This document shows, in pieces, positions 3,736 through 51,289 of a DNA stretch of 55,154 nucleotides. A program made the translations under genes and the position numbers. This DNA comes from Candidatus Kaiserbacteria bacterium (GTDB taxonomy: Bacteria > Patescibacteriota > Minisyncoccia > Phycocordibacterales > UBA918): the NCBI GenBank assembly GCA_043719825.1, contig JAYSTK010000171.1, forward strand, positions 1 to 55,154. The letters are read 5' to 3'. Below the pieces are notes generated by a model. The model had not been told where the DNA came from and searched no databases. It worked only from the letters and a program-made list of their open reading frames with translations. Each line of letters starts with the position of its first letter. Positions within the stretch are counted from its first letter, which is position 1.

Positions 3736-4839
3736 TTACTTTGGAATTGGTTTTTGATATTTAGAAACATTGAGCATAATTCCGACTGACGCAAGTGTGA
3801 CAAGCAGTGCTGTTCCTCCGTGACTTATAAAAGGAAGCGGAAGTCCTGAAAGAGGTGCGAGTCCAATCATTGCACCCATATTTAAAAAAGTTTGAGAAAT
3901 AATGAGTGTAGCAAGTCCCATCACGAGTAGCATACCAAAAAGATCGGGAGCTCTTGTCGCTATTCTAAAAGAACGAAATGTAAAAAAAGTAAAAATGATT
4001 ACAAGAAGTGTTGATCCAAAAAAGCCAAATTCTTCACTATATACAGCAAATATAGAGTCACCAATTGGTTCGGGTAAATATTCAAACTTTTGTATGCTTT
4101 GCCCATACCCTCTTCCAAATACACTCCCTGACCCAACCGCAATGAGTGACTGTTTAATCTGATAGCCGGCACCTTGCGGATCTCGTGAGGGGTCAATGAA
4201 CGTCATGATTCGGTCTTTAACGTAGGGTCTCGTCAACGCGAGAATAGTGATAAGAACTACACCTGCAATTACCATTAATGCTACATCGCGCAATTTTCCT
4301 CCGGCAGTAATAAATACTGCAATTGATGCTGCGGCAATAATAAGAAATGTATCAGTGTCGGGTTGAAAGAGTAACAGCGCCCCTACTCCACTTAAAAAAC
4401 CAATAAACGGTAGGGTACCATGAACAAAACTTTGCACGGCACTCTTCATACCTGAGAGCCATGTGGCCATATAAATAATGAACGCAACCTTTAAAAATTC
4501 GGATGGCTGAAATGAAAAAGATCCAAACTGAACCCATCTCCGTGCGCCCCCGTGCTCTAAACTAAAAGCGGGTATAAATACGAGTAAGGTCAAAAGTATT
4601 GCTGCGATAAATATATAGAACGCATATTGACGCCATACGCGATAATGAATCGTACTTGTAATAAAAAGCGCCACGCTTCCCCCAAGAACTCCAAAAATTA
4701 ATTGATTCATAGCCACTCCAGAGAAGCGAGCTCCATCACGAGCTAAGAGACCGATTGACGCGGAGGAAAAAATAAAAAAACCAATAATAACCAGTATGCT
4801 CGCGAGTATGAGGAGCGTACGATCAAAGGAAGTATTCAT
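3736..4839 (-). CDS. ftsW: SEDS family peptidoglycan polymerase (FtsW/RodA)
   Basis: Polytopic membrane protein with C-terminal signature GLPLPFISHGGTALL. I moved the start to MNTSFDR (ATG 4837-4839) to remove a 29-nt overlap with mraY. Confidence 0.85.
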   Translation of the reverse strand: MNTSFDRTLLILASILVIIGFFIFSSASIGLLARDGARFSGVAMNQLIFGVLGGSVALFITSTIHYRVWRQYAFYIFIAAILLTLLVFIPAFSLEHGGARRWVQFGSFSFQPSEFLKVAFIIYMATWLSGMKSAVQSFVHGTLPFIGFLSGVGALLLFQPDTDTFLIIAAASIAVFITAGGKLRDVALMVIAGVVLITILALTRPYVKDRIMTFIDPSRDPQGAGYQIKQSLIAVGSGSVFGRGYGQSIQKFEYLPEPIGDSIFAVYSEEFGFFGSTLLVIIFTFFTFRSFRIATRAPDLFGMLLVMGLATLIISQTFLNMGAMIGLAPLSGLPLPFISHGGTALLVTLASVGIMLNVSKYQKPIPK

Positions 4840-4840
4840 A

Positions 4841-5914
4841 CTAAAAAGCAATTGCAAGGAGTACGCCAATGACCGCTGTCACGAATCCTAGTATCCAATA
4901 ACGCATGGTTACTTTGTGTGAAGGCCATCCAAGTGCTTCAAAATGATGATGAATTGGCGCTATAAGAAAAACTTTTTTCTTACGAATACGTTTTGAAAGT
5001 ACTTGCACAATATCCGAAAAAACAGTTGCTACGAGAAGAAAACCAATAATAGGAAGGACTGAAACTCCTTCCCCACCACCAAGTGTATCAGTCATAAATG
5101 CGACGATGGTGAGAGCCATAGTGAGGGCCATAATACCCGTCTCCGTCATATAAAAACGTGCGGGTGGAACATTAAACCAAAGAAATGCCAAGATTCCGCC
5201 AACGATTGTTGTGCAGAATGCGGCGAGATCAATTTGATTTTGGTATAAGGCTATTCCTGCATATGCAGAAAAAATAAACATAAAAGTTCCACCGGAGAGT
5301 CCATCAATGCCATCTATAACACTACTTGCATAGATAGAAAGTGCGACAAGAACAAAAAACGGAATAAAGAAAATTCCAAGATCAATAGGCCCGTATCCAA
5401 TAAGCGTTACTTCATGCACGGATAGTTTTTCATAAAACCACCAGCCACTAAATAATGCTGTTGCGCCAACGACGAGGAGTCTCTCTGAAAGCGGAAGTCC
5501 ACCAGCAAAATGGGTACCCGTCCCACGCACGACTAAATAATCATCAATAAAACCAACAAAAGCACCAATAGCGAGCGCAGCAAGTGGTAGCCATGTCTGA
5601 GAGCGACTCAAGAAATTTAAATCTCCGAAGAAAGTATTGGGTGAAAATATTTGTAACATCCATATACAGAAGACCGTAATAAAAACACTTGCCCAAATCA
5701 CTATTCCACCCATTCGAGGAGTGTTAGTATCTTTTTCCTTATGGAGAGTGTCAAAATACGGTGTTTCTCCTCCCCCGTACCCCAAACCCTTACCCGATTT
5801 TTTCTTCCATACTTTGTATGCATACAGATAATGAGTGACGAGGGGCGTAATAAGCATTCCCACGAAGAAAGCTATGGCTGTTGGTATGAGTACTTTAAGA
5901 ATGACAGTTTCCAT
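4841..5914 (-). CDS. mraY: phospho-N-acetylmuramoyl-pentapeptide transferase MraY
   Basis: MraY signatures GFIDDYLVV, IDGIDGLSGG and APIHHHFE. 10-TM-like hydrophobicity. Confidence 0.93.
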   Translation of the reverse strand: METVILKVLIPTAIAFFVGMLITPLVTHYLYAYKVWKKKSGKGLGYGGGETPYFDTLHKEKDTNTPRMGGIVIWASVFITVFCIWMLQIFSPNTFFGDLNFLSRSQTWLPLAALAIGAFVGFIDDYLVVRGTGTHFAGGLPLSERLLVVGATALFSGWWFYEKLSVHEVTLIGYGPIDLGIFFIPFFVLVALSIYASSVIDGIDGLSGGTFMFIFSAYAGIALYQNQIDLAAFCTTIVGGILAFLWFNVPPARFYMTETGIMALTMALTIVAFMTDTLGGGEGVSVLPIIGFLLVATVFSDIVQVLSKRIRKKKVFLIAPIHHHFEALGWPSHKVTMRYWILGFVTAVIGVLLAIAF

Positions 5915-10215: not shown

Positions 10216-11250
10216 CTATGTGAAATTATAAAATTGGTGCGCGTTTTTATAGAAAATCATTTCTTTGATTTTCTCTTGCATGCTATTTGGGAATTCATCA
10301 ATTACTGATTTTAAAGCAAAAATAGATGACCAGTGTGTATGTACTAAATTCTTTGCTAAATGTCTAAAGTGCGTATGTTCATTATTATCCACCCAATGAT
10401 ATTTATATTCCGTTATAAGTCGTTGACCTTTAATTGGGTTAACATATGACCTTGCGCGTACAAGATTAAGTGGCTGGTCACTCCCAAACATAATTCTCTC
10501 TGGTCCAAAATATTTGAATGCTAATTTCAGTACTTCTCTTGAAGGGTTTAGTGACGTATCAAGAAAAATATTTGTACTTTGAGCAAGTTCTCTGTAAACC
10601 TCTTCAAGTTCTGGGATCAAAAATTTAGTTGAACCCAAATGTGGTACACAAATTTTCAGTTTTGGATATTTTTTCAATACATTTAGCAAGTCATTCTTGC
10701 ATTCTGTTATAACTTTCGGAAGGTGAACAATTGAAGGTATCCCCAGATCTTCAGCTACTTTTAATATTTCCTCAGGAAAAGTTTCATATATTGTTCTTGC
10801 AGTTTGCTCAGGGTAAAAATAATACATTTTTAGAGCATTTGGTTTGTAATATTTTAAAATTGAAATTGTATATTCAACGTCTTCTGGTAATCCAAAAATG
10901 GCAACACCGTCCTTACCACGACTTGTTTCAAGTAAGTATGCATTTGCAGATTTGTGATCAATACCATTAAAAACATTAGGAAATCTAAGCGCGGACACTT
11001 CACTTTTTGGATAGAGAAGTTGATTTATTTTTCGCGAGTCATCCACGGAATGATAAAAAAATGTCGAAATCATACTATTAAGTGATTTTTGCGAAACCTT
11101 ACCCACGTGACATAATAAATTACAATGTGCATGACAATCTATGATTTTTTCTGGAAACCAATCAGCGAGAGTTTTAATATTGGTTTTCTCTTCATTGTTA
11201 AACGTAAGAGCATACTCCAGGTATTTTTCGGTAATGTCTTTATAATCCAT
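10216..11250 (-). CDS. amidohydrolase_2-type metal-dependent hydrolase (TIM barrel)
   Basis: IDCHAHC near the N-terminus, then internal VHLP and PHLG, then FLDTS and FGSDQP near the C-terminus. This is the layout of the amidohydrolase_2 family (decarboxylase/lactonase type). Confidence 0.65.
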   Translation of the reverse strand: MDYKDITEKYLEYALTFNNEEKTNIKTLADWFPEKIIDCHAHCNLLCHVGKVSQKSLNSMISTFFYHSVDDSRKINQLLYPKSEVSALRFPNVFNGIDHKSANAYLLETSRGKDGVAIFGLPEDVEYTISILKYYKPNALKMYYFYPEQTARTIYETFPEEILKVAEDLGIPSIVHLPKVITECKNDLLNVLKKYPKLKICVPHLGSTKFLIPELEEVYRELAQSTNIFLDTSLNPSREVLKLAFKYFGPERIMFGSDQPLNLVRARSYVNPIKGQRLITEYKYHWVDNNEHTHFRHLAKNLVHTHWSSIFALKSVIDEFPNSMQEKIKEMIFYKNAHQFYNFT

Positions 11251-11252
11251 AT

Positions 11253-13247
11253 TTAAGGAATTAATCTCCTATATGTTCTTGGAAATGGGACTGCATCCTG
11301 AACCATTTCTTTATTTAGAATTTTTGCAATAAGCCGATCAATGCCAATACAAAAACCTCCATGTTGCACAGCCTTATCAACTATGGAAATATAAAATTCA
11401 TAGTCACTAATATTAATTCCTGATAGTGACATTGATTTCTGAATCTTTTGCCCATCAGTTTGTCGTATCGCACCACTTACCAATTCCCATCCACCGACAA
11501 TAACATCAAATGTTTCAGTTAATCCCCCAGGTTTATCCTTAGTGTAAAACTTCTTAATAGTGTCTGGGTAATCCTTAATGACAAAAATATCACTATCGTA
11601 TTCATTTTTAATAAGTTGTCCGAGTTTTGCTTCACTCACCAAGCCGAGATCATCACCTAATGTAACTGGGTTTCCATTTTTTCGAAGAAGCTCGATCGCT
11701 TCATGATACGTTAATACTGGAAGACTATCGATGTTCGGAAATGATAAACTATTTGAAAGTTTGAATGTCTGAACAATTTCAGTATTAGACATCATTATTA
11801 TAGTGCACGCTAAACGATAGAGCTCTTCTAGATTCTTTGGATTACTTAGTTCTATGTCTAATCCGAGAGACTCTTGTAAATGTCTGTATGATTCATTCTC
11901 TTCCTTCCTCCAAAATGGACCAATTTCGTATATTTTGTGCAATCCTGAAGCTACAAGTATTTGTTTATACATTTGATTTGATTGACGCAAGAATGCGGTC
12001 GTTCCATTTATCCAATCAACATTAATTGTCCCACCCTTATCAATCTTGGGAGGATCAGTAGATATGCCAACAATATAGGGTGTGGTGACCTCAATAAACT
12101 CTTTTTCTGATAAATAATTTCTTACATTACTTATCAGAAGTGCTCGTTGTCTTACAAGGTCCAGCTTTTGTTTATCGAGTTTTAATCCATGAGTTTTTTG
12201 TCGATGAATGTATAATTTCCCAACACTAGTATTAATGTTGTCAATGATTACATTAAGCTTTTTCTGTATTACTGTACGAACTTTATTAATTTCAACTCTA
12301 CGAATTCCCGTATTACTTTCTGCAATTTTTGATAGTTCTTTAATATCTACGAAGGTACCAAATTTTCTATCCAATAATGGCTGTGAAGCAAGATCAATCT
12401 TGTAGATATTTTCAGTGCTAGGTATTGAGCTAACTAAATCATTAATTAGTTTGTTAGTATCGTCATTGCTATCTACTGCAACAATAATACAGCCAACATT
12501 AGCTGGAATCATACTACTATCAAAAGGAAGATAGTGAGCGGTTTCGACATCAAGTTTTTCATTTTTAATAATGATCGGAGTACGGTTTACAATATATAAA
12601 GGAAGTGATAGTTCTTGATTTAATATCTTTGCAATAAGTTTGCCAGACTTCCCATAGCCAATCAAAAGAATGTTCTTGTTTTGTATAATATTTTGTGAAA
12701 CAAGTCCACATGCAATTCTTTCAAGTGAAATATTACCTTCAAAAATATGAGTCCTCAACTTACATTCACTCACCACACCTTTAATCCATTCTGCTAAAAG
12801 TCTAAAGAGTTCATTTGCATCTGTGGTATGAATTCCAGATAATAAAGCATCATTTATCTGACCAGCAACCTGAGAATCTCCAATTGTCACACTATGTAGC
12901 CCAACTGCACATTCGGCTAAAAAGTTTATTGCATCAACTCCATGAAAAATTCTTATGTCTCTGATTGTATTCAATATGCTTACTTCAACGCATTGATCCC
13001 ATGTTGAAAGTAATCTACCACGTAAATGGTCTAAAGAAATATCATCCTGATACGAAATAAGCACCATGATTGCATTGCATTTTTTTACAATTGCGAGTGA
13101 ATCGATTTCTATTCCAAGATTACTTCTAAATCTGGTTAAAGTTACAACGTCGTTTTTTAAGTCTGCATTTTTTAAATTGGTCAAAGCTCGATCATCGAGT
13201 CTCTGATAGTTTAATACAGCACAGACTATTTTGTGGTTTAGTTGCAT
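11253..13247 (-). CDS. fusion protein: glutamyl-tRNA reductase (HemA)-like N-terminal half plus class IIb aaRS (archaeal-type AspRS/AsnRS) catalytic core lacking an anticodon-binding domain
   Basis: N-terminal half: KKCNAIMVL (compare HemA STCNRTELY), FLAECAVGLHSVTIGDSQVAGQI (compare [23 protein letters not shown]), Rossmann LLIGYGKSGKLIAKIL, IVNRT. C-terminal half: FIEVTTPYIV, FLRQSNQMYKQ, FWRKEENESYRHLQESLGLDIEL (motif 2), GGWELVSGAIRQ, HGGFCIGIDRLIAKIL (motif 3), terminal FPRTYRRLIP. Confidence 0.75.
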   Translation of the reverse strand: MQLNHKIVCAVLNYQRLDDRALTNLKNADLKNDVVTLTRFRSNLGIEIDSLAIVKKCNAIMVLISYQDDISLDHLRGRLLSTWDQCVEVSILNTIRDIRIFHGVDAINFLAECAVGLHSVTIGDSQVAGQINDALLSGIHTTDANELFRLLAEWIKGVVSECKLRTHIFEGNISLERIACGLVSQNIIQNKNILLIGYGKSGKLIAKILNQELSLPLYIVNRTPIIIKNEKLDVETAHYLPFDSSMIPANVGCIIVAVDSNDDTNKLINDLVSSIPSTENIYKIDLASQPLLDRKFGTFVDIKELSKIAESNTGIRRVEINKVRTVIQKKLNVIIDNINTSVGKLYIHRQKTHGLKLDKQKLDLVRQRALLISNVRNYLSEKEFIEVTTPYIVGISTDPPKIDKGGTINVDWINGTTAFLRQSNQMYKQILVASGLHKIYEIGPFWRKEENESYRHLQESLGLDIELSNPKNLEELYRLACTIIMMSNTEIVQTFKLSNSLSFPNIDSLPVLTYHEAIELLRKNGNPVTLGDDLGLVSEAKLGQLIKNEYDSDIFVIKDYPDTIKKFYTKDKPGGLTETFDVIVGGWELVSGAIRQTDGQKIQKSMSLSGINISDYEFYISIVDKAVQHGGFCIGIDRLIAKILNKEMVQDAVPFPRTYRRLIP

Positions 13248-13256
13248 ACACTATAT

Positions 13257-14006
13257 TTATTTGTTTCTATAAATATGTTCAACTGTTGCTTGATGCAATG
13301 GTGTAACAGTAACTTCATTTATTTGCACATGTTCAGGTAGTTCTATTGTAAACTTTATGATATTAGCAATATCATTTGCAGATAAGGGCTTAATATCAGA
13401 GTATACAGAATTTGCTTTTTCTTTATTTCCAGCAAAGCGAATGTTGCTAAAGTTTGTCTCGACTAATCCTGGTTGAATATTTGTTATTTTAATTTTATTT
13501 TGTATGACCTCCTTTCGAAGCCCATCTGAAATAGACTTTACCGCCGCTTTTGTTGCTGAGTATACAATTCCTTTTGCGTATGTTGTAATCCCTGCAATTG
13601 AGCCAATATTGATAATATGGCCATCATTATTTTCTTTCATTTGCTTGAGGGCAAACTGAGTAACGCATAGCAATCCTTTAATGTTTGTATCAAGCATTCT
13701 TTCCCAGTCTGATATATGGCTATTTTCAAAATAATCAAGTCCGAGCGCAAGACCTGCTGAGTTTATTAGTACATTAGGGTAAATTCCTTGTGATGCAAGT
13801 GAATCAAACATTTGTTCAACTTGCGACACCTTTGTCACATCAACCTCAAATATTTGTATACTATCAACTTTATCAAGTTTATTTTTAATGTCTCTCAAGT
13901 CAGTTAGATTTCTCGAACAAAGTACTAATTTGTGTTCATCATATAATTTATGAGCACACGCAAGTCCAATTCCGCTACTAGCTCCTGTTATAAGTATCGT
14001 CTTCAT
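13257..14006 (-). CDS. short-chain dehydrogenase/reductase, YdfG / serine 3-dehydrogenase-like
   Basis: TGASSGIG, NSAG, GHIINIGSIAG, YSATKAA (YxxxK), QPGLVETNFSNIRF. Closely resembles E. coli YdfG from memory. Confidence 0.85.
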   Translation of the reverse strand: MKTILITGASSGIGLACAHKLYDEHKLVLCSRNLTDLRDIKNKLDKVDSIQIFEVDVTKVSQVEQMFDSLASQGIYPNVLINSAGLALGLDYFENSHISDWERMLDTNIKGLLCVTQFALKQMKENNDGHIINIGSIAGITTYAKGIVYSATKAAVKSISDGLRKEVIQNKIKITNIQPGLVETNFSNIRFAGNKEKANSVYSDIKPLSANDIANIIKFTIELPEHVQINEVTVTPLHQATVEHIYRNK

Positions 14007-14009: not shown

Positions 14010-15398
14010 TTATTTTATACTAATTTTGAGTTCATTAAGTTGTTGAATAGTCACCTCAGATGGCGAATCCATCATTACGTCTCTTCCTTCACCTGTCTTA
14101 GCAAATGCAATTATTTCGCGAATATTTGGTTCATTTTGAAGAAGCATGACAAGACGATCAAACCCAAAGGCAAGTCCCCCATGTGGCGGTGTACCTGATG
14201 CAAGTGCCTTGAGCATGTGACCAAAATTATTCTCAATTCTTTCTGCAGAATATCCCATAACCTCAAACACTTTTTTAAGTGCCTCGGGATCATGATTACG
14301 AATCCCACCCCCACCAATTTCATAGCCGTTTAGAACTATGTCGTATTGGGATGCGATAATTTCATCAATATTCTCTTTTGCCATCAAGTCTTTGATGTAC
14401 TCAGGCTTCGGTGAAGAGAATGGATTGTGAGTAAATGTCCAGCCATCCTCATCAGTTCTTTCAAAGAAAGGAAAGTCGATAACCCAACAGAATGCTAGAA
14501 GATTTTTATTCTCCTTATCTTTACGTAGATCAGGCTTGTCGCTACCGTACGTTTCCATAGCATCTTCGTATGAGAGTCGGGGAAAAGGCACCTCCTGGAT
14601 TTCTTTTTCAGGATATAACGTTTCAACTAAATTAAGAATAAGTTTCTCATTGATGGACATGACATCTTCCTGTTCAACAAAGCTCATTTCCATGTCGATT
14701 TGTGTAAATTCAGGTTGACGATCTCCCCGCGTATCTTCATCTCTGAAGCATCTAGCAATTTGAAAATACTTTTCAAAACCTGCAGCCATAAGAAGCTGTT
14801 TATACTGCTGTGGTGACTGTGGAAGTGCATAAAATTTCCCCGTGAATACACGTGAAGGAATGATGTAGTCGCGGGAACCTTCAGGAGTAGACTTAGTCAT
14901 ATTTGGTGTTTCGATTTCAGTAAAACCTTCATGTGAATAGAATTCGCGGACTTTTTGTAATAACATGTGTCGACTATAAATATTTTTCTGCATTCGTTCA
15001 CGACGAAGATCTATGTATCGATAACGAAGACGAACCTCTTCATTTATCTCTTTTCCATCACCAGTAATATCAAAGGGTGGTGTATCAGCTTTGTTAAGAA
15101 CGTCTATTATTAAAATCTCCAATTCGATATCGCCATTTTGTTTATCCATTTGTATGGCTCGATCGGGCCGTTTATTCACCTTACCTGTTACCGCCACCAC
15201 CCACTCAGGTCGAAGTGTTGAACCGATTTCGTGCGCCTTTAATGCATTTGGTAATATCACTCCTTGAATTTTTCCTGACATATCTCGAAAATCTAAGAAT
15301 ATAAGTTTCCCTTGATCTCGACGTATATCAACCCAACCTTTAATGAGGACGGTTTCTTCGATGTGTTCTGAAAGTTTGTTTATAAGGATTCTTTCCAT
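14010..15398 (-). CDS. aspS: aspartyl-tRNA synthetase, bacterial type but without the GAD insertion domain
   Basis: QSPQQYKQLLM, motif 2 FRDEDTRGDRQPEFTQIDMEMSF, motif 3 GGLAFGFDRLVMLL. YGSDKPDLRKDKENKNLLAFCWVIDFPFFE shows the insertion is absent. The track ORF starts at a TTG (15419). I prefer the first ATG (MERILINKL, 15398). The start is uncertain. Confidence 0.9.
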   Translation of the reverse strand: MERILINKLSEHIEETVLIKGWVDIRRDQGKLIFLDFRDMSGKIQGVILPNALKAHEIGSTLRPEWVVAVTGKVNKRPDRAIQMDKQNGDIELEILIIDVLNKADTPPFDITGDGKEINEEVRLRYRYIDLRRERMQKNIYSRHMLLQKVREFYSHEGFTEIETPNMTKSTPEGSRDYIIPSRVFTGKFYALPQSPQQYKQLLMAAGFEKYFQIARCFRDEDTRGDRQPEFTQIDMEMSFVEQEDVMSINEKLILNLVETLYPEKEIQEVPFPRLSYEDAMETYGSDKPDLRKDKENKNLLAFCWVIDFPFFERTDEDGWTFTHNPFSSPKPEYIKDLMAKENIDEIIASQYDIVLNGYEIGGGGIRNHDPEALKKVFEVMGYSAERIENNFGHMLKALASGTPPHGGLAFGFDRLVMLLQNEPNIREIIAFAKTGEGRDVMMDSPSEVTIQQLNELKISIK

Positions 15399-15424
15399 AT
15401 GTATATATTGTATATGCAAGTAAA

Positions 15425-16926: not shown

Positions 16927-17505
16927 ATGGAGCACATAATGATCATTACTCTCACTGGACCTTCTGGTGTTGGTAAGGGTCACCTCACCGCACAGCTGCA
17001 ATCTGAGCTCGGAGCAAAGATTGTCCCCTGGACTACGACACGGCCAGCTCGCTCTGATGATGTTACGACCAACAACCGTCGTTTTGTCACCCGGGAGGAG
17101 TTTGATCTGATGCAGTCTGAGGGATTGCTTATCGGCGTCCAAAACCTGCATGGACACAAATACGGTCTGGAGCAAACGCTTCTCGGGATGACCGACAGAG
17201 AAGGAACATACATTTGCGAAATCAACAGCGCTAATGTCCTGACCCTCTTCCCTGTTATTTATCGACGTTTCAGCGTTGCTCTCGTCACCGATGATTTTCA
17301 ACTGTTGAAAGAGCGTATTCAGAAACGCGAACCCAATGTTGGGAATGTGGAACTGAGAGACCGTCTGGAAACAGCGGTCAAGGAGGTGGGACTTGTTCGC
17401 ACCAACGCATCATTGTTCCATCTACAAATCAACGTCGATATCTGCCACGCATCAGCAGTCGCGTCCATCGCGATTGAAGCCATCAGAAAAGGAGTAGGCT
17501 CATGA
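16927..17505 (+). CDS. guanylate kinase-like P-loop kinase
   Basis: P-loop GPSGVGKG, then TTTRPARSDD, FVTREEFDLM and HGHKYGL, in guanylate-kinase order. Visibly GC-richer than the surroundings. Its stop overlaps the next start (ATGA). Confidence 0.75.
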   Translation: MEHIMIITLTGPSGVGKGHLTAQLQSELGAKIVPWTTTRPARSDDVTTNNRRFVTREEFDLMQSEGLLIGVQNLHGHKYGLEQTLLGMTDREGTYICEINSANVLTLFPVIYRRFSVALVTDDFQLLKERIQKREPNVGNVELRDRLETAVKEVGLVRTNASLFHLQINVDICHASAVASIAIEAIRKGVGS

Positions 17506-18654
17506 ATATTCGGACAAAAGTCGGCTTGGTTGAACTGAACAGCCCGCTCCTTATCGGTTCAGGCTACATCACGGAGGATACTTCGTTCTATGCTCGCTCG
17601 GTCACTCGTGGCTGTGCTGGCATGGTTTCGAGGTCGCTCAAGCTGAACGTTCCCAAAGAACGTCAGCGCGTACCTGCACCTCGCTACGTCGTCACCAATG
17701 ACGGATCGATGCTCAACTGTGAGTGGGGCAATGAAAAACCGTGGACGGATTGGCGAGAAAAAGAGTTTCGTCTGGCCAAAGAGATTCGGGGTGCCATCAT
17801 CATCTCCATCAGTGGGCGTGATGTGGAAAGTTGCAAACAGCTAATCCACGAACTCGACCCGTTCGAACCAGATGCATACGAGGTGAACATCTCGTATGCA
17901 CACTCAGGTGAGCTTCACGGCAACCTGAATCTGGACATCGAACATCTCAGGTACGTCCTTCGCACCATTCGACCCCTGACAAAGAGGCCGATCTGGGTAA
18001 AGCTGTCCTACTCGTCAATCCTTCTGGACATGGCGGTGGCGGCTGAGCAAAATGGAGCTGACGCAATCGTGTGCACCAACTCGATCGGACCGGGACTATA
18101 TCTCGATCCAAAGACTGGTCGCCCGCTACTCGGAATCATGGGTGGAGCTGGTGGACTCACAGGTAGTGCGATCTTTCCGATTGCCCTCCAGTGTGTGTAC
18201 AAGCTATATACACCTGAGCATTCCCATCGTGGGTGTCGGCGGAATAAGCACTGCCGAACATGTGGTTCAGATGATGCTCGCTGGTGCAAGTGCGGTTCAA
18301 CTATACACCGCTCCTGCACTGCACGGTCCCCGTGTCTTTGAGGACATCACCAATGGCCTCGAAAGTTACCTTGCGGACCATGAAGTGTTCTCGAACTGCG
18401 CCGAGCTGGTCGGGTATTCACATACCCTGACCGAACAGCATGTGTTCGATGCGCCTCCCCCACTGGTGATTGCTGACAAATGCACAGGATGTCTCGAGTG
18501 TGCATCATCATGCGCATTTGAAGCCCTCAAGTTTGTCAGTCGAGGAGCAGACCAGCCGAAGCTCGTAGTCATCAAAGACAACTGCATCGGTTGCAACGCG
18601 TGCGTCGGCGTCTGTCCCCCAGAATTCGATGCATTTAAGATCCAAATGAGGTAA
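17502..18654 (+). pseudogene. PreA / dihydroorotate-dihydropyrimidine dehydrogenase-like flavoprotein with C-terminal 2x[4Fe-4S] domain, interrupted by a frameshift
   Basis: The frame-0 ORF (17502..18341) carries the TIM-barrel N-terminal part up to GGLTGSAIFPIALQCVYKLY. The frame+1 ORF (18052..18654) continues with IHLSIPIVGVGGISTAEHVVQMMLAGASAVQLYTA, then CTGCLECASSC and CIGCNACVGVCP. The frames join at the TATATA tract near 18207-18215. Confidence 0.75.
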
Positions 18655-24665: not shown

Positions 24666-25958
24666 TTAAACTATCCATCCCCATTTTTTTAGAAGAGGGA
24701 TATCATGCTTATGAACTCGAGTTCCGATATCAGTGCGGTAGATCATTTTTGGGACTTTTAATAACGAAAGAAGTTTATGAATTTTTCTTTGTGCCACAGG
24801 GATGGTTTTTGCTGTAGTGACTACATATCCAAGATAGCCAAATTCACCCGCCCAATAAAGTTGCTCACCTTTTTTCCCTATTTCTTTTGAGACTTCTTCT
24901 AAATAGATCGAGTTACTTTCTTCCTCCGTTAGAGAATGTGTGAAGGACACTATTGTTTTTTTTGAACTTCTTTTTCGAAGGGGTGGATATGGAAAGGGTG
25001 GAACAGCAACTGAAGCTACAATGCCATATGCATTTTTAAATTTCATTTGCGCATTTTTTCCAGTTGCAACCTTGTATAGAAAATCTCCAAATGATGATTC
25101 ATATAGTTCACACTGTAATTGAATGGCCGGGGTACCTAACCTTGGTGTAAGCTCAAGTGGCCAAATATCATTTTGTGTAACAATGCAATTCACATCTATA
25201 TCTCCTTGAAATTGGATTTTTTGCAGAAATGGTGTGATTCGCTTAAGGGTTTTTTCATATAGTGGCAATGTTTCGTCTGTTGAATGCCACATCACAGTCC
25301 CCATTTCAGCAGTTAGTGGACCTTTGTCATCATTTAGCAGTCTTTTATGCTCATGATTAATTTCGATAGGTCCAACCCATTCGCGACCGTTGAAGTAGCG
25401 GGCAATACCTACTTCAATGCCATCCACTTTCTTTTGGAGATGCGCATGAGGAATTTTCAATTTTTTATAGAGTTGTAGCCGTTCAATAACATCGCTTCCA
25501 TCAGTTTTTTCCCCAACAAAATTTAGACTGCTAATATGACTTGTTTGTTTTACTGCCCATTTTCCCTTATTTTCACGAACAAAGTCTATGGCAGCATTGA
25601 TATCTTTAAAATTAAATGAAGGCAAAATCTTTATTCCATAAGTATGAAGAATACGCTGACCATATGCACGATCAAGTTCTAAACGATCTGCTTCCATATT
25701 GCCTCCGAAGACTATATACCCCCTTTTCCGAAGACTTTCTTGAATTTCACCAAAACCTACATCATCAAAAATGATAAGTCCTTCTTTACCAACCCACTTT
25801 AACTCCTTTTTCCAATCAGGTGTTTTATTAATAAAACCAGCAAGGCACTCTTTACGAGCAGGATCATGAATATACAATTTTACATCGTGACCCTCCTTAA
25901 CTAATCTGTGGCATAGACCTGAACCAATAAGTTCATTAGAAATAAACAATACCCTCAT
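24666..25958 (-). CDS. PurD-like ATP-grasp ligase (orphan; no other pur genes nearby)
   Basis: Follows the PurD layout: EHKRLLNDDKGPLTAEMGT (compare DHKR..D.GPNTGGMG), ELTPRLGTPA (compare EFNCRFGDPE), C-terminal RTDIG. Confidence 0.65.
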   Translation of the reverse strand: MRVLFISNELIGSGLCHRLVKEGHDVKLYIHDPARKECLAGFINKTPDWKKELKWVGKEGLIIFDDVGFGEIQESLRKRGYIVFGGNMEADRLELDRAYGQRILHTYGIKILPSFNFKDINAAIDFVRENKGKWAVKQTSHISSLNFVGEKTDGSDVIERLQLYKKLKIPHAHLQKKVDGIEVGIARYFNGREWVGPIEINHEHKRLLNDDKGPLTAEMGTVMWHSTDETLPLYEKTLKRITPFLQKIQFQGDIDVNCIVTQNDIWPLELTPRLGTPAIQLQCELYESSFGDFLYKVATGKNAQMKFKNAYGIVASVAVPPFPYPPLRKRSSKKTIVSFTHSLTEEESNSIYLEEVSKEIGKKGEQLYWAGEFGYLGYVVTTAKTIPVAQRKIHKLLSLLKVPKMIYRTDIGTRVHKHDIPLLKKWGWIV

Positions 25959-28255: not shown

Positions 28256-29191
28256 TCACAAACAAAGGAAGTCAATGAAAGGGTTGGTGAGATCAAAATT
28301 TGTCATGTATTGAAGCCACAACCATTGGCCGTTTGGATTAAGTTCCAGGAACACGAGAGTATCATTTTTTGTTACTGCAAAGTCGACTGCTGAGAACTCC
28401 AATCTAAAATGTTTCATCAAAGCAATTAATGCAGCTGTTGTTTTTTTATCAATTGAGCAGACTTCATGCTTAATCTTATCCAACGTAAGCTGTTTAAGAT
28501 CGTCGACTTGAGATTGAGGAATCAGCCTGAATGCGTAAGCCTTTGAACCGAACATTACAACTCGCACTTCGTATTTAATTTCAAGTTTTTCCTGTGCAAA
28601 ACAAGGGGTAAATTTGGTTGCTTGACCAAAATTTAATGATTTGAGGGTGCGAGTCCCGAGAACACGTGAACTTTTTTCAGAATTCAGGACCTGAGTTTGG
28701 ATTGGTTTAGCTACAATTCCATTTGCACATTCACTTGCAAAAGATTTAAGCACATCTAAATCCTTTGTGATGAGAGTCCTGGGTATATCTAGGCCGTACC
28801 TGGCTGCTGTGATCAGCTGATTAGGTTTTGAGCGTGCTGAAACAATGCTTTCAGGTCTACTTACCCAGCGACAGGAGGTATATTGATGCAGTAATGATTC
28901 GATCAAGCCTTCAGTTTCTTGAAAACAAAAGGACCGGATGTGGTCGAACTTCTCAGGAATGTGTAATCGTCTCCGATACCAAATAACTGAAACATCATCC
29001 GTATGCCATGAGTTATTCTTAGTTCGCTGTTTGTCGTTGGGGCAAAGTCGCCATGTGGCATTAGGTATTTGGGTAACAGTATCTGTATTGAGTCTATTAA
29101 ATAAAATAGAGCGTCTTTTGCACGCATCTTCAATGATATTTACATGGCGGTCGTCTGACTCACTAACTGCAAGAATTTTTATCAGTGACAT
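28256..29191 (-). CDS. ATP-grasp ribosomal peptide maturase (MdnB/MdnC, microviridin-type)
   Basis: 311 aa. DDRHVNIIEDA..RLNTD, VIWYRRR, SKPNQLITAARYGLDIPRTLITKD, QEKLEIKYEVRVVMFG, FLELNPNGQWLWLQ. These match the family pattern as I recall it. Confidence 0.72.
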   Translation of the reverse strand: MSLIKILAVSESDDRHVNIIEDACKRRSILFNRLNTDTVTQIPNATWRLCPNDKQRTKNNSWHTDDVSVIWYRRRLHIPEKFDHIRSFCFQETEGLIESLLHQYTSCRWVSRPESIVSARSKPNQLITAARYGLDIPRTLITKDLDVLKSFASECANGIVAKPIQTQVLNSEKSSRVLGTRTLKSLNFGQATKFTPCFAQEKLEIKYEVRVVMFGSKAYAFRLIPQSQVDDLKQLTLDKIKHEVCSIDKKTTAALIALMKHFRLEFSAVDFAVTKNDTLVFLELNPNGQWLWLQYMTNFDLTNPFIDFLCL

Positions 29192-30419: not shown

Positions 30420-31673
30420 TTAGGTTTTGGGAAGCCCAATGAATTCACCACTTGCCTCAGGACTAAAATGCTTATGATAGATTGCATTGAGTGAGTGCGT
30501 GTTTACTTCTTTTAGAATCCAATCAACAAGCATCGTTTCTGTAAAGTTGGCCTCATATGTAATGATGCTATCTTGCGCTGCATCGATTCTTTCCCCAATT
30601 GTTTGGAATGCAAAACACTTTGATTTGATGAGTCTATCTTTAGCTACACTGATTGCCGTTTCGTCGTTAATCGCTTTCACTACGATGTCGTGGATCGATT
30701 CCTTCACTTTCATCGCGTTCGCCTCGTCATTCACGGGGACATCAATGTTCCAACCCATACGCTCTCGTTCTGACCAACTCGCACCTCCTACTCCATATGA
30801 AATGCCCATTTCTTTTCGGTATACATCATTAAGGACCCCGTACTCACTATCTGTAAGGTAATCACATAGGAAAGCAATTGTTCTAGCTTCATTAAGGTTT
30901 GCATATGGAATAAAATTTCCCCACATGTATACCGGGGCATCTATATCGAGCGATTGCATGGTGTGGAATGCCTGACGATTCCATTCATATGGAATGAACC
31001 GAGAAGAAGGCAAATGTTCTTCCTTGAAGGTGATTGATTCAAGTTCACTGCTAAGTTTTTCGTGATCGAAATTACCTGCGATGATGACGGTAAACGGTCG
31101 TGAAAGATAATTACTATGGAATCGAAGTAGTAGATCATGGGACATGGATCCAATTGTTTCATCAGTTCCAAACACTTGATCTTTCAATACAAAATGAGCT
31201 TTTGCCCATTCAGTAAATTTATAGTGCCCAAAATGATCGTTCGCAGGAAAATATTTACTTAATGACCGTTCGCTCATAATGATGCCTTTATGGAGTTCTA
31301 TATCATCATGATAAAGAGAAGGATGCACAATGTGCTTAATCAATTTTGAGGCAAGGTCATTGAAGTCACTGCTGGGCGCTTGCATGAAAAATGTAGTTTC
31401 AAACGGTGTAGTCCATGCGTTTGAGTTTCCCCCTGCATCTGCAACCTGTTTCTCAAAACTATTTCGTACAAGTTCACCTTCGGAACGATCAAGGCATACA
31501 TGTTCCAAAAAATGAGCGATTCCATATGCGCCACCATAGTTTCCTTCGTGGGAATGACTTGTTCCGATCGGTACAATAACCCGTATCTGCGCAAAAGGCA
31601 TTTGTACTTTTTGTGACCATACCGGTATTTTATTCTTGAGAATGGTTTTATTGAAAGCAAGTCGATCATCCAT
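30420..31673 (-). CDS. M16 (pitrilysin) family zinc peptidase
   Basis: HFLEHV (HxxEH). I set the start at MDDRLAFNK because the longer track ORF would run through the upstream terminator hairpins. Confidence 0.8.
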   Translation of the reverse strand: MDDRLAFNKTILKNKIPVWSQKVQMPFAQIRVIVPIGTSHSHEGNYGGAYGIAHFLEHVCLDRSEGELVRNSFEKQVADAGGNSNAWTTPFETTFFMQAPSSDFNDLASKLIKHIVHPSLYHDDIELHKGIIMSERSLSKYFPANDHFGHYKFTEWAKAHFVLKDQVFGTDETIGSMSHDLLLRFHSNYLSRPFTVIIAGNFDHEKLSSELESITFKEEHLPSSRFIPYEWNRQAFHTMQSLDIDAPVYMWGNFIPYANLNEARTIAFLCDYLTDSEYGVLNDVYRKEMGISYGVGGASWSERERMGWNIDVPVNDEANAMKVKESIHDIVVKAINDETAISVAKDRLIKSKCFAFQTIGERIDAAQDSIITYEANFTETMLVDWILKEVNTHSLNAIYHKHFSPEASGEFIGLPKT

Positions 31674-31690
31674 AATATAAAATAGTATAA

Positions 31691-31752
31691 TGCAAAAAAT
31701 AATGAACGGACAAAGGATGTGTCCGTTCATCCGTCTCCGTCAATGGAGACGG
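31691..31752 (-). terminator. tandem hairpins ending the small-protein gene
   Basis: CCGTCTCC-N6-GGAGACGG (31731-31752) and GAACGGAC-N9-GTCCGTTC (31704-31728), followed on the minus strand by ATTATTTTTT. Confidence 0.6.
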
Positions 31753-48130: not shown

Positions 48131-49411
48131 TCAATGTGTAGCTGGGGTAATCGGAATACCTTCTTTGGAAATTGGCCCCGCTGCTGAAAGGGTAAGGTCT
48201 CGTGGATCAATGTGTTTTTTGACGGCGGTATTTACTTCTTCACACGAAAGTAGCTCCCGTTTTGATTCGAGGATAAGAAGATCTGACTCGGTATAGCCCA
48301 TAATTCGCGCATTGTGATACAACGCGAGGCGATGTGCATTCGAATCATGGGCAAGTGCAAATCTGTTTTTTTTGATTTCTTTAAAAATAGAAAGTTCTTC
48401 AATCGATATTCCATTCTTTACTATTGTGACAATTTCTTTGTTTGTTTCAATAATTCCCTTATTAAAATCTTTTGCGCTAAAAAAAGTATATACATTCCAA
48501 TGTGCTTGCGTACGCTCATCACGAATAACGGGAGTAGCATAAATACCATACGTAAGGCCATGTTTTTCTCGCACCGTACTCATCAGTCTTCCTGAAAAAC
48601 CTCCTAGAAGCCCGAGGACATCAATCCCAAAAGAGAGTGGGAGAAAATCCGAATCTTCAGGTGTAAGAGCAAGAAGTGCACCCATACGCACTTCGACATT
48701 AGTTTTTCCCTTGACGACTTCAAAATGGCTTGAACGATGTGGAGGAGTAATGGGTACTTCTGATCTATCAACTTGAGTTGTGAGTGAACCAAGAGTTACC
48801 ATTTTCTCAGTCACAAGTGAAGCCGATTCCTTGTCTCCTACCACCGTCACATACCATTCTCCTTTTAAAACATTCTGTGCAAGAAGTGAATATTTATTGG
48901 TATTTAATTGTTGAATATCATTTTTATCCTCTTTGAGCGTGCGACTTCGAAGAGAACTCCCCGGTGGAAAAAGTAAATTTAGAAAATTGATGTGCGCAAT
49001 TTTTTTTGCATTGTCATGATCTTCACGATTTTCTTCCAAAAATAGAATTTGCTTTCGCGTAAATTCTTTTGTATCAAGTTTTGGATTTAGAAGCAGTTCT
49101 TTAAGAATGAGAAGTGCCCGGGGTAGATTCTGTTTGCGAACGACAATCGAGATAGTAATTATGTCATTATGTACTGAAATTTTAAGCGAGATTCCATGCT
49201 GTTTGAGGTAGTAATCAAGTGCCTCTTTTGAATACTTTTGTGTACCGCTTAAAAAGAGCGCTGCGTACATATGTAGTGAAACATCTGTATATACCTTCCT
49301 ATACTGAGGAATGACCATGCTCAGTTTCATTTGTACGAGAGAAGGATCAAGTGATGTGACACTCGTAATGTGAATAGATTCGTAATCAGTATGTGCAGTA
49401 TAGTGCTTCAT
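48131..49411 (-). CDS. M16 family peptidase, non-catalytic-type subunit (no HxxEH)
   Basis: M16-like length. Translationally coupled (ATGA at 49411) to the HxxEH-bearing upstream gene. No HxxEH motif seen. Confidence 0.7.
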   Translation of the reverse strand: MKHYTAHTDYESIHITSVTSLDPSLVQMKLSMVIPQYRKVYTDVSLHMYAALFLSGTQKYSKEALDYYLKQHGISLKISVHNDIITISIVVRKQNLPRALLILKELLLNPKLDTKEFTRKQILFLEENREDHDNAKKIAHINFLNLLFPPGSSLRSRTLKEDKNDIQQLNTNKYSLLAQNVLKGEWYVTVVGDKESASLVTEKMVTLGSLTTQVDRSEVPITPPHRSSHFEVVKGKTNVEVRMGALLALTPEDSDFLPLSFGIDVLGLLGGFSGRLMSTVREKHGLTYGIYATPVIRDERTQAHWNVYTFFSAKDFNKGIIETNKEIVTIVKNGISIEELSIFKEIKKNRFALAHDSNAHRLALYHNARIMGYTESDLLILESKRELLSCEEVNTAVKKHIDPRDLTLSAAGPISKEGIPITPATH

Positions 49412-50760
49412 TATATAGTTGTTGATTCTTTTTCTAGTGTCCCAATTGTTGCATTTCTGAGAGTTAAATATTCTGCAGCAGCATTTTTTACTTCCTCACG
49501 TGTTATCGATTCAATTTCCGGGAGTGTATTGAGATATTGTTTCCAATTCCCTGTCGCAACATATTCCGCAAGCTCCGTTCCTATGTTATGACTCCCGTCT
49601 CTTCCTTTAATTGTTTCAATGAGAATATATTCTTTAATTAATTTAAGTTTTTTTTCAGAAATACCCTTTTTTATAAGTATGGTTATTTCTCGCATAACAA
49701 TTTCTTCAATAGCGGCATAGTTACCTTCTTTTGTCGCATATATACTGAAAAATGCCAAAAACGGATCCTTTGTAGGATACAGATGTGCACCTATTTCTGT
49801 AGCGTGACCTCCCTCTACAAGCTCCTTATAAAGCGGGCTTGTCTCCCCGTGGGAAAGGTAAAGAAGAGCTATCGTAAGCGCATTCCATGATCGAGACTGT
49901 AATGGAGGCGCCTTAAAAGCGATAGCTGTGTACCGTAATGGGGTTTCCCTAATAAGTGACACACGCCTTACTCCAGCTTGAATGGGTTCTTTTCGTAAAG
50001 GCTTTGTATGAATGACTGGTATATTCGAAATAGAAGAGAAATGTTTTTCAACACGAGGGAGAACTTCCTTTGCATTTAGGTCTCCGACAAGAATAAGTGT
50101 GGCATTATTGGGCCAATAATGCTTATTATAAAATGATGTGAGCGACTTAAGTGAGTACTGCTCTATGTCGCTTTTAAATCCAATTGTATCGTGATGATAC
50201 CCATGGAGCGTAAATGCAGCTTGGACCATTTCCCATTCGAGGACGGAATCAGGTTTACTGTTTTGGATTTCGTATTCACTGAGCACATTCGCGCGCTCAG
50301 GATTAAATTCTTCTTGAGTGAGCACTACATTTCGCATCCGATCTGCTTCAACTTCGAGCATTCCGTCAAGATATTCTTTAGGAAGAGTGAAATAGTATAA
50401 TGTACGATCAAGCCACGTTGTAGCATTTAAATGTGCACCCTTGTTTTCTAGGTCTTTCCACTTCGTACCTGTTCCTGTCGTGGGCTTAAAGAGCATATGT
50501 TCAAGCATATGTGCAAGACCTGTCTCTCCCGTTCGCTCATCTTGTGATCCAACTTTATATAAAATTGTAGAAGTTACAGTAGGGCTCTGTGGTAGTTGAA
50601 CAATAAGTACAGTGAGTCCATTTGTATCAGAATGATACTCAGTAATATTACTTTTCTTCGTTATGAGAGAAAAAGAACCAATTTTAGTATTAGCCTTGGT
50701 ACCGCGCTTCGCGGGAACGTTCAACTTCACCAATGAATGATTTGAATTCTTCGAAGACAT
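49411..50760 (-). CDS. M16 family zinc peptidase, catalytic subunit
   Basis: HMLEHMLF (HxxEH). Either in-frame ATG (50784 or 50760) overlaps the HD gene end (50690) by 70 nt or more, so the true start may be a non-ATG codon further downstream. Confidence 0.78.
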   Translation of the reverse strand: MSSKNSNHSLVKLNVPAKRGTKANTKIGSFSLITKKSNITEYHSDTNGLTVLIVQLPQSPTVTSTILYKVGSQDERTGETGLAHMLEHMLFKPTTGTGTKWKDLENKGAHLNATTWLDRTLYYFTLPKEYLDGMLEVEADRMRNVVLTQEEFNPERANVLSEYEIQNSKPDSVLEWEMVQAAFTLHGYHHDTIGFKSDIEQYSLKSLTSFYNKHYWPNNATLILVGDLNAKEVLPRVEKHFSSISNIPVIHTKPLRKEPIQAGVRRVSLIRETPLRYTAIAFKAPPLQSRSWNALTIALLYLSHGETSPLYKELVEGGHATEIGAHLYPTKDPFLAFFSIYATKEGNYAAIEEIVMREITILIKKGISEKKLKLIKEYILIETIKGRDGSHNIGTELAEYVATGNWKQYLNTLPEIESITREEVKNAAAEYLTLRNATIGTLEKESTTI

Positions 50761-51289
50761 GATTGAATTCAGAGAGTATAGCATTATCGAGGCTCCTATT
50801 GAAAATATTGCTTATTTCTTGGTACATAAAGATTCGATCATTCATAGAATCTCCAAAATCAGCGATGAGTCGCCCATGATCCTCATAATATGCCTCAACC
50901 ATTGAACGCATGTTATGAATCTTATCAGCAGCAGCTACGAGAAGAGATTCTTGTGACGCTTCTTTAAGTTGTTTTACATATTTTTTCTTCTGCTCCACCC
51001 AAGAATCAGAAGCATCAGTGTCCTTTCGTGTTATAGACATCACTATTTCTAAAACCGTATGCCCAAAGTCTTCATTCAGCTCTTCACTCGTATAATCCGT
51101 ATCTTCAATTGTGTCATGAAGGAGCGCCGCAATGATGACGTCTTCATTGTTAGTGTAATCGGCGACAATCATCGCCACTGCAAATACATGAGTGACATAG
51201 GGATAAGGAACTTCTCCTTTCCGAATTTGATCTTTATGCAAAATTGCAGCTGCACGTATTGCTTGTTCGATACGGAATGAGTAGTGCAT
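50690..51289 (-). CDS. HD-domain (p)ppGpp hydrolase-like protein (small alarmone hydrolase type)
   Basis: AAILHKDQIRKG..PYVTHVFAVA...AALLHDTIEDT, as in the RelA/SpoT hydrolase domain. 199 aa, no synthetase domain. Confidence 0.78.
   Translation of the reverse strand: MHYSFRIEQAIRAAAILHKDQIRKGEVPYPYVTHVFAVAMIVADYTNNEDVIIAALLHDTIEDTDYTSEELNEDFGHTVLEIVMSITRKDTDASDSWVEQKKKYVKQLKEASQESLLVAAADKIHNMRSMVEAYYEDHGRLIADFGDSMNDRIFMYQEISNIFNRSLDNAILSEFNHVFEEFKSFIGEVERSREARYQG

Follow-up and report, generated by a model that had tools for sequence, protein, structure and literature searches.

Glutamyl-tRNA reductase (GluTR) is, to our knowledge, the only known aminoacyl-tRNA reductase, and it is tied to haem synthesis. 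It is built from a catalytic domain, a spinal helix and a dimerisation domain, with the catalytic and dimerisation domains at opposite ends of the helix (PMC6399207, PMC4726326), and it attacks the ester of aminoacyl-tRNA (PMC6399207). Among the paralogues of aspartyl-tRNA synthetase (AspRS), a 2022 review of aminoacyl-tRNA synthetase (aaRS) paralogues names AS-A/AS-AR and ErdS only. ErdS combines AspRS and DUF2156 activities (PMC9437257). This analysis concerns one gene and its neighbours in 55,154 nucleotides of DNA from Candidatus Kaiserbacteria bacterium (contig JAYSTK010000171.1; the whole stretch is called the window below). The gene encodes a fusion of a GluTR-like reductase to an AspRS-type catalytic core that lacks an anticodon-binding domain. 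As the original prediction made from the DNA letters had supposed, no description of this architecture was found in a full-text literature search or in the aaRS reviews. The protein is a genuine, conserved enzyme, not described before, of the tiny symbiotic bacteria of the Candidate Phyla Radiation (CPR), and it belongs neither to GluTR, nor to AspRS, nor to AS-A proper.

The features of the fusion point to the stepwise reduction of a carboxyl group. A general scheme, in which the carboxyl of an Asp-like substrate would be converted to an aldehyde and then to an alcohol, is probable. The specific version favoured here is proposed tentatively, at a little under an even chance. The protein would be a bifunctional enzyme that activates Asp, holds it as a thioester on Cys57 and reduces it with NADPH to an aldehyde, which would then become an alcohol, probably with a tRNA serving as carrier. 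The domain identities and folds, the conservation of the catalytic residues, the occurrence of fused and split genes and the gene context are firmly established, and the substrate, the carrier, the product and the sequence of steps are inferred.

The open reading frame (ORF) on the minus strand has 664 codons, an ATG start and no interruption (Table 1). It is the single ORF that had been described from the letters, and its translation contains every peptide quoted at the time (KKCNAIMVL, GLHSVTIGDSQVAGQI, LLIGYGKSGKLIAKIL, IVNRT, FIEVTTPYIV, QSNQMYKQ, FWRKEENESYRHLQESLGLDIEL, GAIRQ, GGFCIGIDRL and FPRTYRRLIP). The codons of KKCNA (13071-13085) and FWRKE (11901-11915) were checked directly on the DNA. 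Both halves had been identified correctly, the first as GluTR (HemA)-like and the second as a class IIb AspRS/AsnRS-type core without an OB-fold anticodon-binding domain; profile, fold and conservation agree on each. The original prediction had named three Pfam families. GlutR_N (residues 46-140, E 3e-7, 30.7 bits against a gathering score of 27) and tRNA-synt_2 (residues 363-658, E 2e-47) were recovered, and Shikimate_DH fell just under its cut-off (residues 188-259, 21.5 bits). The NCBIfam hemA model TIGR01035 aligns with residues 47-338 (E 8e-17, 61 bits against a cut-off of 209.6). Other hemA equivalog models give 15-44 bits against cut-offs of 289-478, and the curated GluTR threshold is not reached. 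Such scores are expected against curated full-length models because each match covers half a protein.

The fold of the N-terminal half leads to the same assignment. An AlphaFold2 (AF2) model of residues 1-352 has a pLDDT of 91, and GluTR structures rank far ahead of generic Rossmann proteins among its matches; ranked by TM-score the best GluTR match is 1gpj (TMq 0.71, E 3e-15), and ranked by E-value it is 4n7r. Like GluTR (HemA, EC 1.2.1.70; 1gpj, 4n7r), this half has the three-part fold of catalytic domain, NADPH-binding Rossmann domain and spinal helix. It also has a nucleophilic Cys in a C-N context, which had been predicted and aligns with the Cys of Arabidopsis GluTR, and it keeps the GLxS..G(D/E)xQ(V/I)..Q and post-Rossmann N-R-T motifs. 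The dimerisation domain is different. The Pfam scan gave no match to GlutR_dimer (PF00745) in the fusion ORF, residues 353-664 being tRNA-synt_2, whereas PF00745 does show up in canonical fusions such as P0211. Because the AF2 secondary structure has the spinal helix (residues ~302-352) leading straight on to the motif-1 helix of the synthetase, this class II core of 310 residues is modelled as standing where GluTR has its three-helix dimerisation domain. Cores related to AspRS are obligate class II dimers, and the core would thus replace the GluTR domain at the base of the V-shaped dimer.

The active site of the reductase separates the fusion from haem-pathway enzymes. A profile search with the N-terminal half, run over 1.84 billion cluster representatives, recovered 77 proteins at E < 1e-30 before ordinary GluTRs appeared. 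The profile-aligned sequences form two clean classes, K-C-N-x (151 sequences) and canonical GluTR (57 sequences). Canonical GluTRs carry C-N-R (54 of 57) or T-C-H-R (3 of 57), most have Glu at position 124 (48 of 57) and none has Arg177. The new class combines K-C-N-[A/G/S/C], Arg177 and Asp124 in 147 of its 151 members. Position 59 is Ala in the window protein, which therefore reads K-C-N-A in place of T-C-N-R, and all 151 members have A, G, S or C there. The loss of the HemA CNR Arg had been noticed in the window protein alone, and it extends to the whole class. In the Methanopyrus kandleri enzyme this Arg reportedly binds the gamma-carboxylate of glutamate. Since it is never present, Glu is an unlikely substrate, as had been proposed. 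The residue that corresponds to His99 of M. kandleri is Tyr or Phe in the subfamily. Because the CNR Arg is lost, a Lys is gained just before the Cys and Arg177 is new, the reductase pocket reads as one re-tooled for a substrate that is not Glu but still carries a charge.

The second half is closest to archaeal-type AspRS. The NCBIfam model NF003483 (archaeal-type non-discriminating AspRS) aligns with residues 364-664 (E 4e-65, 220.5 bits against a cut-off of 353). The ranking is archaeal AspRS (220 bits), AsnRS (130), AS-A (104), bacterial AspRS (77) and LysRS (62). Because of these scores and because K428 and D464 are kept, the core is classed, on its sequence, as AspRS-like rather than AsnRS-, AsnA- or LysRS-like. 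A full-length, alignment-based AF2 model (pLDDT 86.7, pTM 0.72) has AspRS and AsnRS cores as its neighbours among solved structures (1b8a, E 2e-23). The alignments with AspRS structures begin at their residue ~120-136, and the Pfam scan gave no match to OB-fold (PF01336) in the fusion ORF; the neighbouring AspRS does have one. Identity to archaeal/eukaryotic-type AspRS is ~27-29% over 314-316 fold-aligned columns, gaps included, with a root-mean-square deviation of 2.3-2.5 A.

Class II motifs 1-3 and their ATP-binding arginines are present in the core (P390, R447 and R638 are invariant). An Asp-binding set that aligns with 3nel, 1n9w and 1wyd (S423, Q425, K428, D464, E466 and R595) is invariant as well and includes the kept Lys of QSxQxxK (K428) and Arg of GxIR (R595) on which an Asp-like substrate had been predicted. 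In yeast, E. coli and archaeal AspRS structures, the counterparts of the invariant core residues bind ATP, Mg and Asp. K428 is taken to be the Lys that contacts the Asp side chain, and the block containing E588 is taken to provide the Mg/ATP Glu and the Asp side-chain Arg (R595). Motifs 1-3, QSxQxxKQ, D-x-E and the Arg of the G..R block are shared with archaeal/eukaryotic-type AspRS (P. kodakarensis 1b8a/3nel and T. thermophilus AspRS2 1n9w). The core differs from these enzymes in lacking the OB-fold and hinge, in its EGG stretch (discussed below) and in having a reductase as partner, fused or adjacent; R421, N424, W446 and W587 are specific to the family. With AS-A, AS-AR and AsnA it shares a class IIb core without an anticodon domain, which in those enzymes activates Asp with ATP (PMC9437257). 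The best AS-A model (NF005052) gives it 104 bits against a cut-off of 368, under the AspRS and AsnRS scores, and AS-A is a stand-alone amidating enzyme whereas this core is always partnered with a thiol- and NADPH-dependent reductase.

The same architecture is found in many other genomes. A search of 5.8 billion proteins returned ~110 full-length clusters with 33-68% identity, nearly all from Patescibacteria. Among the genomes of GTDB species, 20 loci were found, most of them labelled as Patescibacteria-type lineages (Parcubacteria, Kaiserbacteria, Azambacteria, Falkowbacteria and Saccharibacteria). About a third lie in bins with other labels, several on short contigs, and these labels may reflect mis-binning. 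Conservation was counted over 98 full-length homologues (33-68% identity). Invariant in the N-terminal half are K56-C57-N58, G116, S119, G123-D124, Q126-V127, Q130, S174, E176-R177, G197 and G199. Invariant in the core are R421-QSNQ-x-Y-KQ, GPFWR447, H456-L, E459, D464, E466, W587, R595, H629, R638 and FPR657. The original prediction had hung on the conservation of the Cys and of the motif 2 and 3 residues, all of which are in this set. Because the catalytic-site residues of both halves are invariant, the alignment indicates that both are under selection as catalysts.

This record bears on whether there is anything new in the protein, which might be a divergent haem-pathway GluTR, a decayed pseudogene or a mis-assembly of hemA and aspS. 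That explanation is barely conceivable. The modest GlutR_N score fits it, and some sources do name relatives in this way; database names for the family are 'aspartyl-tRNA synthetase', 'glutamyl-tRNA reductase', 'amino acid--tRNA ligase-related' and 'hypothetical'. An assembly chimera or pseudogene is ruled out by the ~110 full-length homologues from independent assemblies that share the junction, by split two-gene variants and by the invariant catalytic residues. A true haem-pathway GluTR is rejected because the CNR Arg and the dimerisation domain are missing and because neither a scan of 42 window proteins (most ORFs of at least ~185 aa) nor the gene tables of related loci showed a haem-pathway gene (hemL, hemB or hemC). 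CPR bacteria lack haem synthesis and most other biosynthesis, and the expectation that haem synthesis would be out of place in this genome agrees with the lack of a tetrapyrrole context among the proteins scanned.

The two halves also occur as separate neighbouring genes. Almost every long K-C-N-x member bears a class IIb core. All fused relatives with a recognisable C-terminal domain have tRNA-synt_2 (the C-terminus of P0136 is not assignable), which rules out fusion to other synthetase types among the recognisable C-termini. The short K-C-N-x members examined are split versions with the core as an adjacent gene: one locus has the order AspRS, reductase (354 aa), core (294 aa) and TrpRS (L030), a second has reductase and core as two ORFs (L024) and a third has core (320 aa), reductase (418 aa) and AspRS (L031). 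Because the two activities are fused in some lineages and encoded by adjacent genes in others, gene organisation provides strong evidence that they work together. Free-standing cores of the same subfamily (265-324 aa, no anticodon-binding domain, a T-D-P-V loop and GWE..SGAQRET) form ~12 clusters. These could have been widespread asparagine synthetases that predate the fusion, an origin ruled out by their rarity and by the several that share contigs with the reductase. For the same two reasons they are assigned to this system.

The genes around the fusion in the window suggest what becomes of its product. In transcriptional order on the minus strand these are AspRS, a short-chain dehydrogenase/reductase (SDR), the fusion, an Amidohydro_2 protein and an M17 peptidase. 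The gaps are 2-9 nt, on which the operon call rests, a scan of 8.5-17.2 kb for promoters and terminators having given no more sites than shuffled sequence. The SDR, fusion and amidohydrolase genes have a GC content of 0.33-0.35 (0.22-0.26 at third codon positions, GC3) against 0.39-0.43 in the flanks. They look like one compositional cassette within a conserved synteny block (TrpRS-AspRS ... ScpA-ScpB-S11-MraY-FtsW-MurG-GluRS). The order AspRS-SDR-fusion recurs in relatives of at least 45% identity. The Amidohydro_2 gene also recurs with the fusion, with which it shares at least nine further contigs, as judged from contigs of equal length, and its position and orientation vary. Its product has a weak fuconolactonase match in NCBIfam and bears no specific functional name in any source; the closest relative with a solved structure is a hydrolase that is itself uncharacterised (3ij6, E 8e-5).

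The nearest solved relatives of the SDR are yeast YMR226C, E. coli YdfG, the sulfoacetaldehyde reductase IsfD and clavaldehyde dehydrogenase, all of which reduce small polar aldehydes. In a distant K-C-N-C relative (L034), the slot between AspRS and fusion is occupied by an iron-containing alcohol dehydrogenase (Fe-ADH) that is not homologous to the SDR. Its best matches are the sulfoacetaldehyde reductase SarD, lactaldehyde reductase and 4-hydroxybutyrate dehydrogenase. Because non-homologous aldehyde reductases occupy the same slot, there is good independent evidence, drawn from gene context, that the product leaving the fusion is a small aldehyde, probably anionic, and that its reduction to an alcohol follows. 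The slot holds a GNAT acetyltransferase at one other locus (L007), and an extra aspartoacylase-like gene is present at another (L006). The surroundings of a distant member of 646 aa (P0143; L035 7946-8806, minus strand) look like natural-product biosynthesis, unlike the CPR housekeeping context. Its neighbours are a free-standing NRPS (non-ribosomal peptide synthetase) condensation domain, a class IV aminotransferase and a GFO/IDH/MocA oxidoreductase. A role in anti-phage defence was considered as well, and PADLOC gave no match for the fusion, the SDR or the amidohydrolase.

The recurrent linkage of the fusion to a full AspRS gene was not part of the original prediction and was found in this follow-up. 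A full AspRS adjoins the system in three arrangements: AspRS-X-fusion (clade A, L030 and L034), core-reductase-AspRS (L031) and divergent (L009). Part of the adjacency in clade A is, to judge from the synteny, inherited; its repetition across arrangements would be hard to ascribe to chance. The AspRS of the window is bacterial-type (NF001750, 622 bits, matched in two stretches) and has only 469 aa and no GAD domain. The AspRS proteins beside the system in L009 and L031 do carry GAD.

This linkage is one ground for an unlikely but serious rival, a division of labour in which the neighbouring AspRS would supply Asp-tRNA(Asp), the GluTR-like module would reduce it to the amino-aldehyde and the core would not be the supplier. 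The core would then be either an AsnA/EpmA-type, ATP-dependent ligase acting in a second step, which would couple Asp to an amine (the pathway product, for example), or an acceptor-stem clamp and dimerisation module. The extra free-standing cores of the same subfamily that lie near a fusion in L003, L009 and the P0101 contig suggest a role for the core beyond supply. ErdS and LysX, which are aaRS fusions that supply themselves, keep the full synthetase including its anticodon domain. Against this division, a purely structural core would not explain the invariant ATP-, Mg- and Asp-binding residues. The AspRS gene of the window matches the housekeeping flank in composition rather than the cassette and sits in the conserved synteny block, and clade B has the fusion without an adjacent AspRS.

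In the reading favoured here, in which the core itself would activate the substrate, the C-terminal core would bind ATP and L-aspartate (or a very close analogue) and form the aminoacyl-adenylate. The activated acyl group would pass to the GluTR-like module, which most likely holds the tRNA whose 3' end carries it. Cys57 would then attack the ester to give a thioester, which the Rossmann-bound NADPH would reduce to an amino-aldehyde; with the alpha-carboxyl as the reacting group, this would be aspartate 1-semialdehyde. The co-encoded SDR would convert this to an amino-alcohol acid, and the Amidohydro_2 partner would act afterwards or on a cyclised form. The tRNA would thus be a covalent swinging arm, loaded at its 3' end by a core lacking the anticodon domain and stripped by the reductase, a proposal that falls somewhat short of even confidence. 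It is favoured because the ancestral chemistry of the GluTR fold is an attack on the aminoacyl-tRNA ester (PMC6399207). It is also favoured because the GluTR catalytic pocket lies far from the dimerisation end, which makes transport by a mobile carrier simpler to envisage than a direct attack on the bound adenylate, and because the link to AspRS genes points to tRNA(Asp) biology. GluTR reportedly recognises the shape of its tRNA and not the anticodon, and the half derived from it could make up for the tRNA binding that went with the anticodon domain.

Several observations weigh against this favoured reading. The anticodon-binding domain dominates recognition of tRNA(Asp) by AspRS, and the core is without it. 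The EGG stretch of archaeal AspRS, which lies near the tRNA 3' end in AspRS structures, reads S/T-D-P-P/V in the family. With Asp-tRNA already provided by the AspRS next door, there would seem to be little need for another site of activation. We know of no metabolic role for aspartate 1-semialdehyde or its alcohol. None of the characterised class IIb cores without an anticodon domain (AS-A/AS-AR and EpmA) charges tRNA (PMC9437257).

Clade B (~42% identity) counts on the same side, with neither an AspRS nor a reductase gene adjacent to its fusion. Instead, a gene for a metallo-beta-lactamase-fold protein of 267 aa, which has weak matches of the RNase Z and PhnP-like kinds, lies convergently downstream of the fusion in this clade (12066-12869, minus strand, in L015, and at six other loci). 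One clade B locus (L008) has LPG_synthase_C (DUF2156, an aminoacyl-tRNA-dependent transferase) 2 kb upstream of the fusion (4108-5007, plus strand). A last point on this side is that no dedicated tRNA gene is linked to the system; the 55-kb window as a whole contains no tRNA gene. In two clade B loci a tRNA-Glu gene lies ~230-250 nt upstream of the fusion on the same strand (L015 9670-9742 and L017 9682-9754), with anticodon TTC in one and CTC in the other. Its value as a hint of the substrate is rejected. The two tRNA regions are 86% identical and probably amount to one inherited arrangement, and the tRNA is followed by its own terminator-like hairpin.

The lack of an anticodon domain can also be read to mean that tRNA plays no part. 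In this rather improbable but serious alternative, the core would adenylate the beta-carboxyl of free Asp in the manner of AsnA/AS-AR, giving L-aspartate 4-semialdehyde and then homoserine. Cys57 would take the acyl group from beta-aspartyl-AMP, which resembles the aminoacyl-A76 end of a tRNA, and would form a thioester as in aspartate-semialdehyde dehydrogenase, which NADPH would reduce to the 4-semialdehyde. The SDR or Fe-ADH would serve as homoserine dehydrogenase. LysC, Asd and Hom would thus be replaced by a cassette of non-homologous enzymes that supplies homoserine or diaminopimelate and Lys. Characterised AspRS/AsnRS-derived cores without the anticodon domain work without tRNA, and the Asp activated by AS-A is attacked by a small nucleophile (PMC9437257); the OB domain is missing from the core in every member. 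Aspartate 4-semialdehyde and homoserine are central metabolites, whereas the alpha-aldehyde has no use that we know of. The partners reduce small anionic aldehydes and include relatives of 4-hydroxybutyrate dehydrogenase, and Amidohydro_2 includes lactonases, which would suit a pair of 4-hydroxy acid and lactone in view of the weak fuconolactonase match.

Against the beta-carboxyl route stand the far higher score of the core as AspRS than as AS-A and its full set of alpha-activating AspRS residues. Access to an adenylate held in a class II site would be difficult for a buried Cys, and the labile adenylate would need to be released. The repeated linkage to a full AspRS would be left unexplained, and no downstream genes for Thr, Met or diaminopimelate were seen in the window or the related loci.

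The scheme with a tRNA carrier resembles other systems only in logic or overall chemistry. NRPS proteins of the A-T-R type, carboxylic acid reductases (CAR) and Lys2 follow the steps predicted here, namely adenylation, thioester formation and NADPH-dependent reduction to an aldehyde, often with a separate reduction to an alcohol, and the tRNA would play the part of their carrier domain. There is no homology between them and the fusion. Those enzymes use an ANL domain, a phosphopantetheinyl carrier and an SDR-type R domain, and the Pfam families for ANL adenylation, carrier and R domains have no match in the fusion ORF. ErdS (AspRS-DUF2156) and LysX (LysRS-MprF) likewise join a synthetase to a module whose relatives use aminoacyl-tRNA, a design that would secure a private aminoacyl-tRNA supply for a product outside translation (PMC9437257). 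Those fusions transfer the aminoacyl group to lipid, whereas the consuming module here would be a reductase, the anticodon domain is gone and the Pfam scan gave no match to PF01336 or to PF09924 (the DUF2156-type transferase) in the fusion ORF.

In the fusion, a GluTR fold appears to have been adapted to another substrate and joined to an amino-acid-activating module of its own. If a tRNA is indeed the carrier, the system would represent a new use of tRNA in small-molecule metabolism, with an RNA in the role of the NRPS carrier and with NRPS- and CAR-like chemistry derived from translation. It would be only the second aminoacyl-tRNA reductase known in nature, and its product in CPR bacteria would be an amino-aldehyde or amino-alcohol metabolite not known before. 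The K-C-N-x and Arg177 superfamily (~150 sequences, fused or adjacent to cores) would in that case form a whole class of aminoacyl-tRNA reductases outside haem synthesis. Should the beta-carboxyl be reduced without any tRNA, the outcome would be a new, non-homologous way of making aspartate semialdehyde and homoserine. Either way, an unannotated pathway of four to five genes is at hand, and its retention in genome-reduced symbionts suggests that the product matters to them.

Table 1. Coordinates of the fusion gene, its motifs and partners in the window, and of free-standing cores at related loci.
Feature	Position	Strand	Basis or remark
Whole fusion ORF, 664 aa, GluTR-like reductase and AspRS-type core without anticodon-binding domain	11253..13247	-	ORF list, Pfam, NCBIfam, homologues
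GluTR-like catalytic domain, residues 1-165	12753..13247	-	Pfam GlutR_N, TIGR01035, fold match 1gpj/4n7r
Cys57 codon, predicted thioester nucleophile, in K56-C57-N58-(A59)	13077..13079	-	Alignments, conservation
G116-L-H-S119-...-G123-D124-S-Q126-V127-..-Q130, counterpart of GluTR GLDS..GExQI..Q	12858..12902	-	Alignment, conservation
Arg177 codon (S174-x-E176-R177), family-specific	12717..12719	-	Profile alignment
NADPH-binding Rossmann domain, residues 186-300	12348..12692	-	Pfam, conservation, AF2 model
G197-x-G199-x-x-G202, then N221-R222-T (Rossmann domain)	12642-12659 for GxGxxG	-	Conservation
'Spinal' helix, residues 302-352	12192..12344	-	AF2 secondary structure; no PF00745 match
Class IIb archaeal-type AspRS core, residues 353-664, no OB-fold	11256..12191	-	Pfam, NCBIfam, structure alignments
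R421-Q-S-N-Q-x-Y-K428-Q429, counterpart of AspRS QSPQxxKQ, family-invariant	11961..11987	-	Alignment, conservation
Class II motif 2 and loop, G443-P-F-W-R447 ... R455-H456-L ... D464-x-E466	11850..11921	-	Alignment, conservation
G586-W-E588-L-V-S591-G-A-I-R595, counterpart of AspRS GxEixsGgqR	11463..11492	-	Alignment, conservation
Class II motif 3, H629-G-G-F-C-I-G-I-D-R638	11334..11363	-	Alignment, conservation
Upstream partner SDR, YdfG/YMR226C/IsfD/clavaldehyde-dehydrogenase group, predicted aldehyde reductase, 9 nt from fusion start	13257..14006	-	Pfam, NCBIfam, structure relatives, GC
Downstream partner Amidohydro_2 (PF04909), metal-dependent hydrolase/lactonase/decarboxylase-type, 2 nt past fusion stop	10216..11250	-	Pfam, gene tables, GC
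Full bacterial-type AspRS, 469 aa, OB domain present, no GAD insertion, directly upstream of SDR	14010..15419	-	Pfam, NCBIfam, gene tables
Free-standing core	L003 2527-3501	-	Additional to fused copy
Free-standing core	L009 9237-10034	+	Additional to fused copy
Free-standing core	L031 5036-5998	+	Beside reductase

Other parts of the window contain genes of separate interest. Guanylate-kinase-like and DHO_dh-like genes at 16927-18341 have a GC content of 0.50-0.54 (GC3 0.52-0.57) against a window mean of 0.40. They lie on the plus strand, nearly all other genes being on the minus strand, and may be a foreign insertion. Two ATP-grasp-like genes (24666-25958 and 28256-29191, minus strand) weakly match GARS_A and the pre-ATP-grasp domain of microviridin MvdD. 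Small unannotated ORFs surround them in a stretch of low GC content (0.35), and the genes could form a small graspetide-like cluster for peptide modification. Three genes for M16 (insulinase-type) peptidases are found on the minus strand (30420-31730, 48131-49411 and 49411-50784), and the window also encodes M17, S9 and M10-like peptidases.

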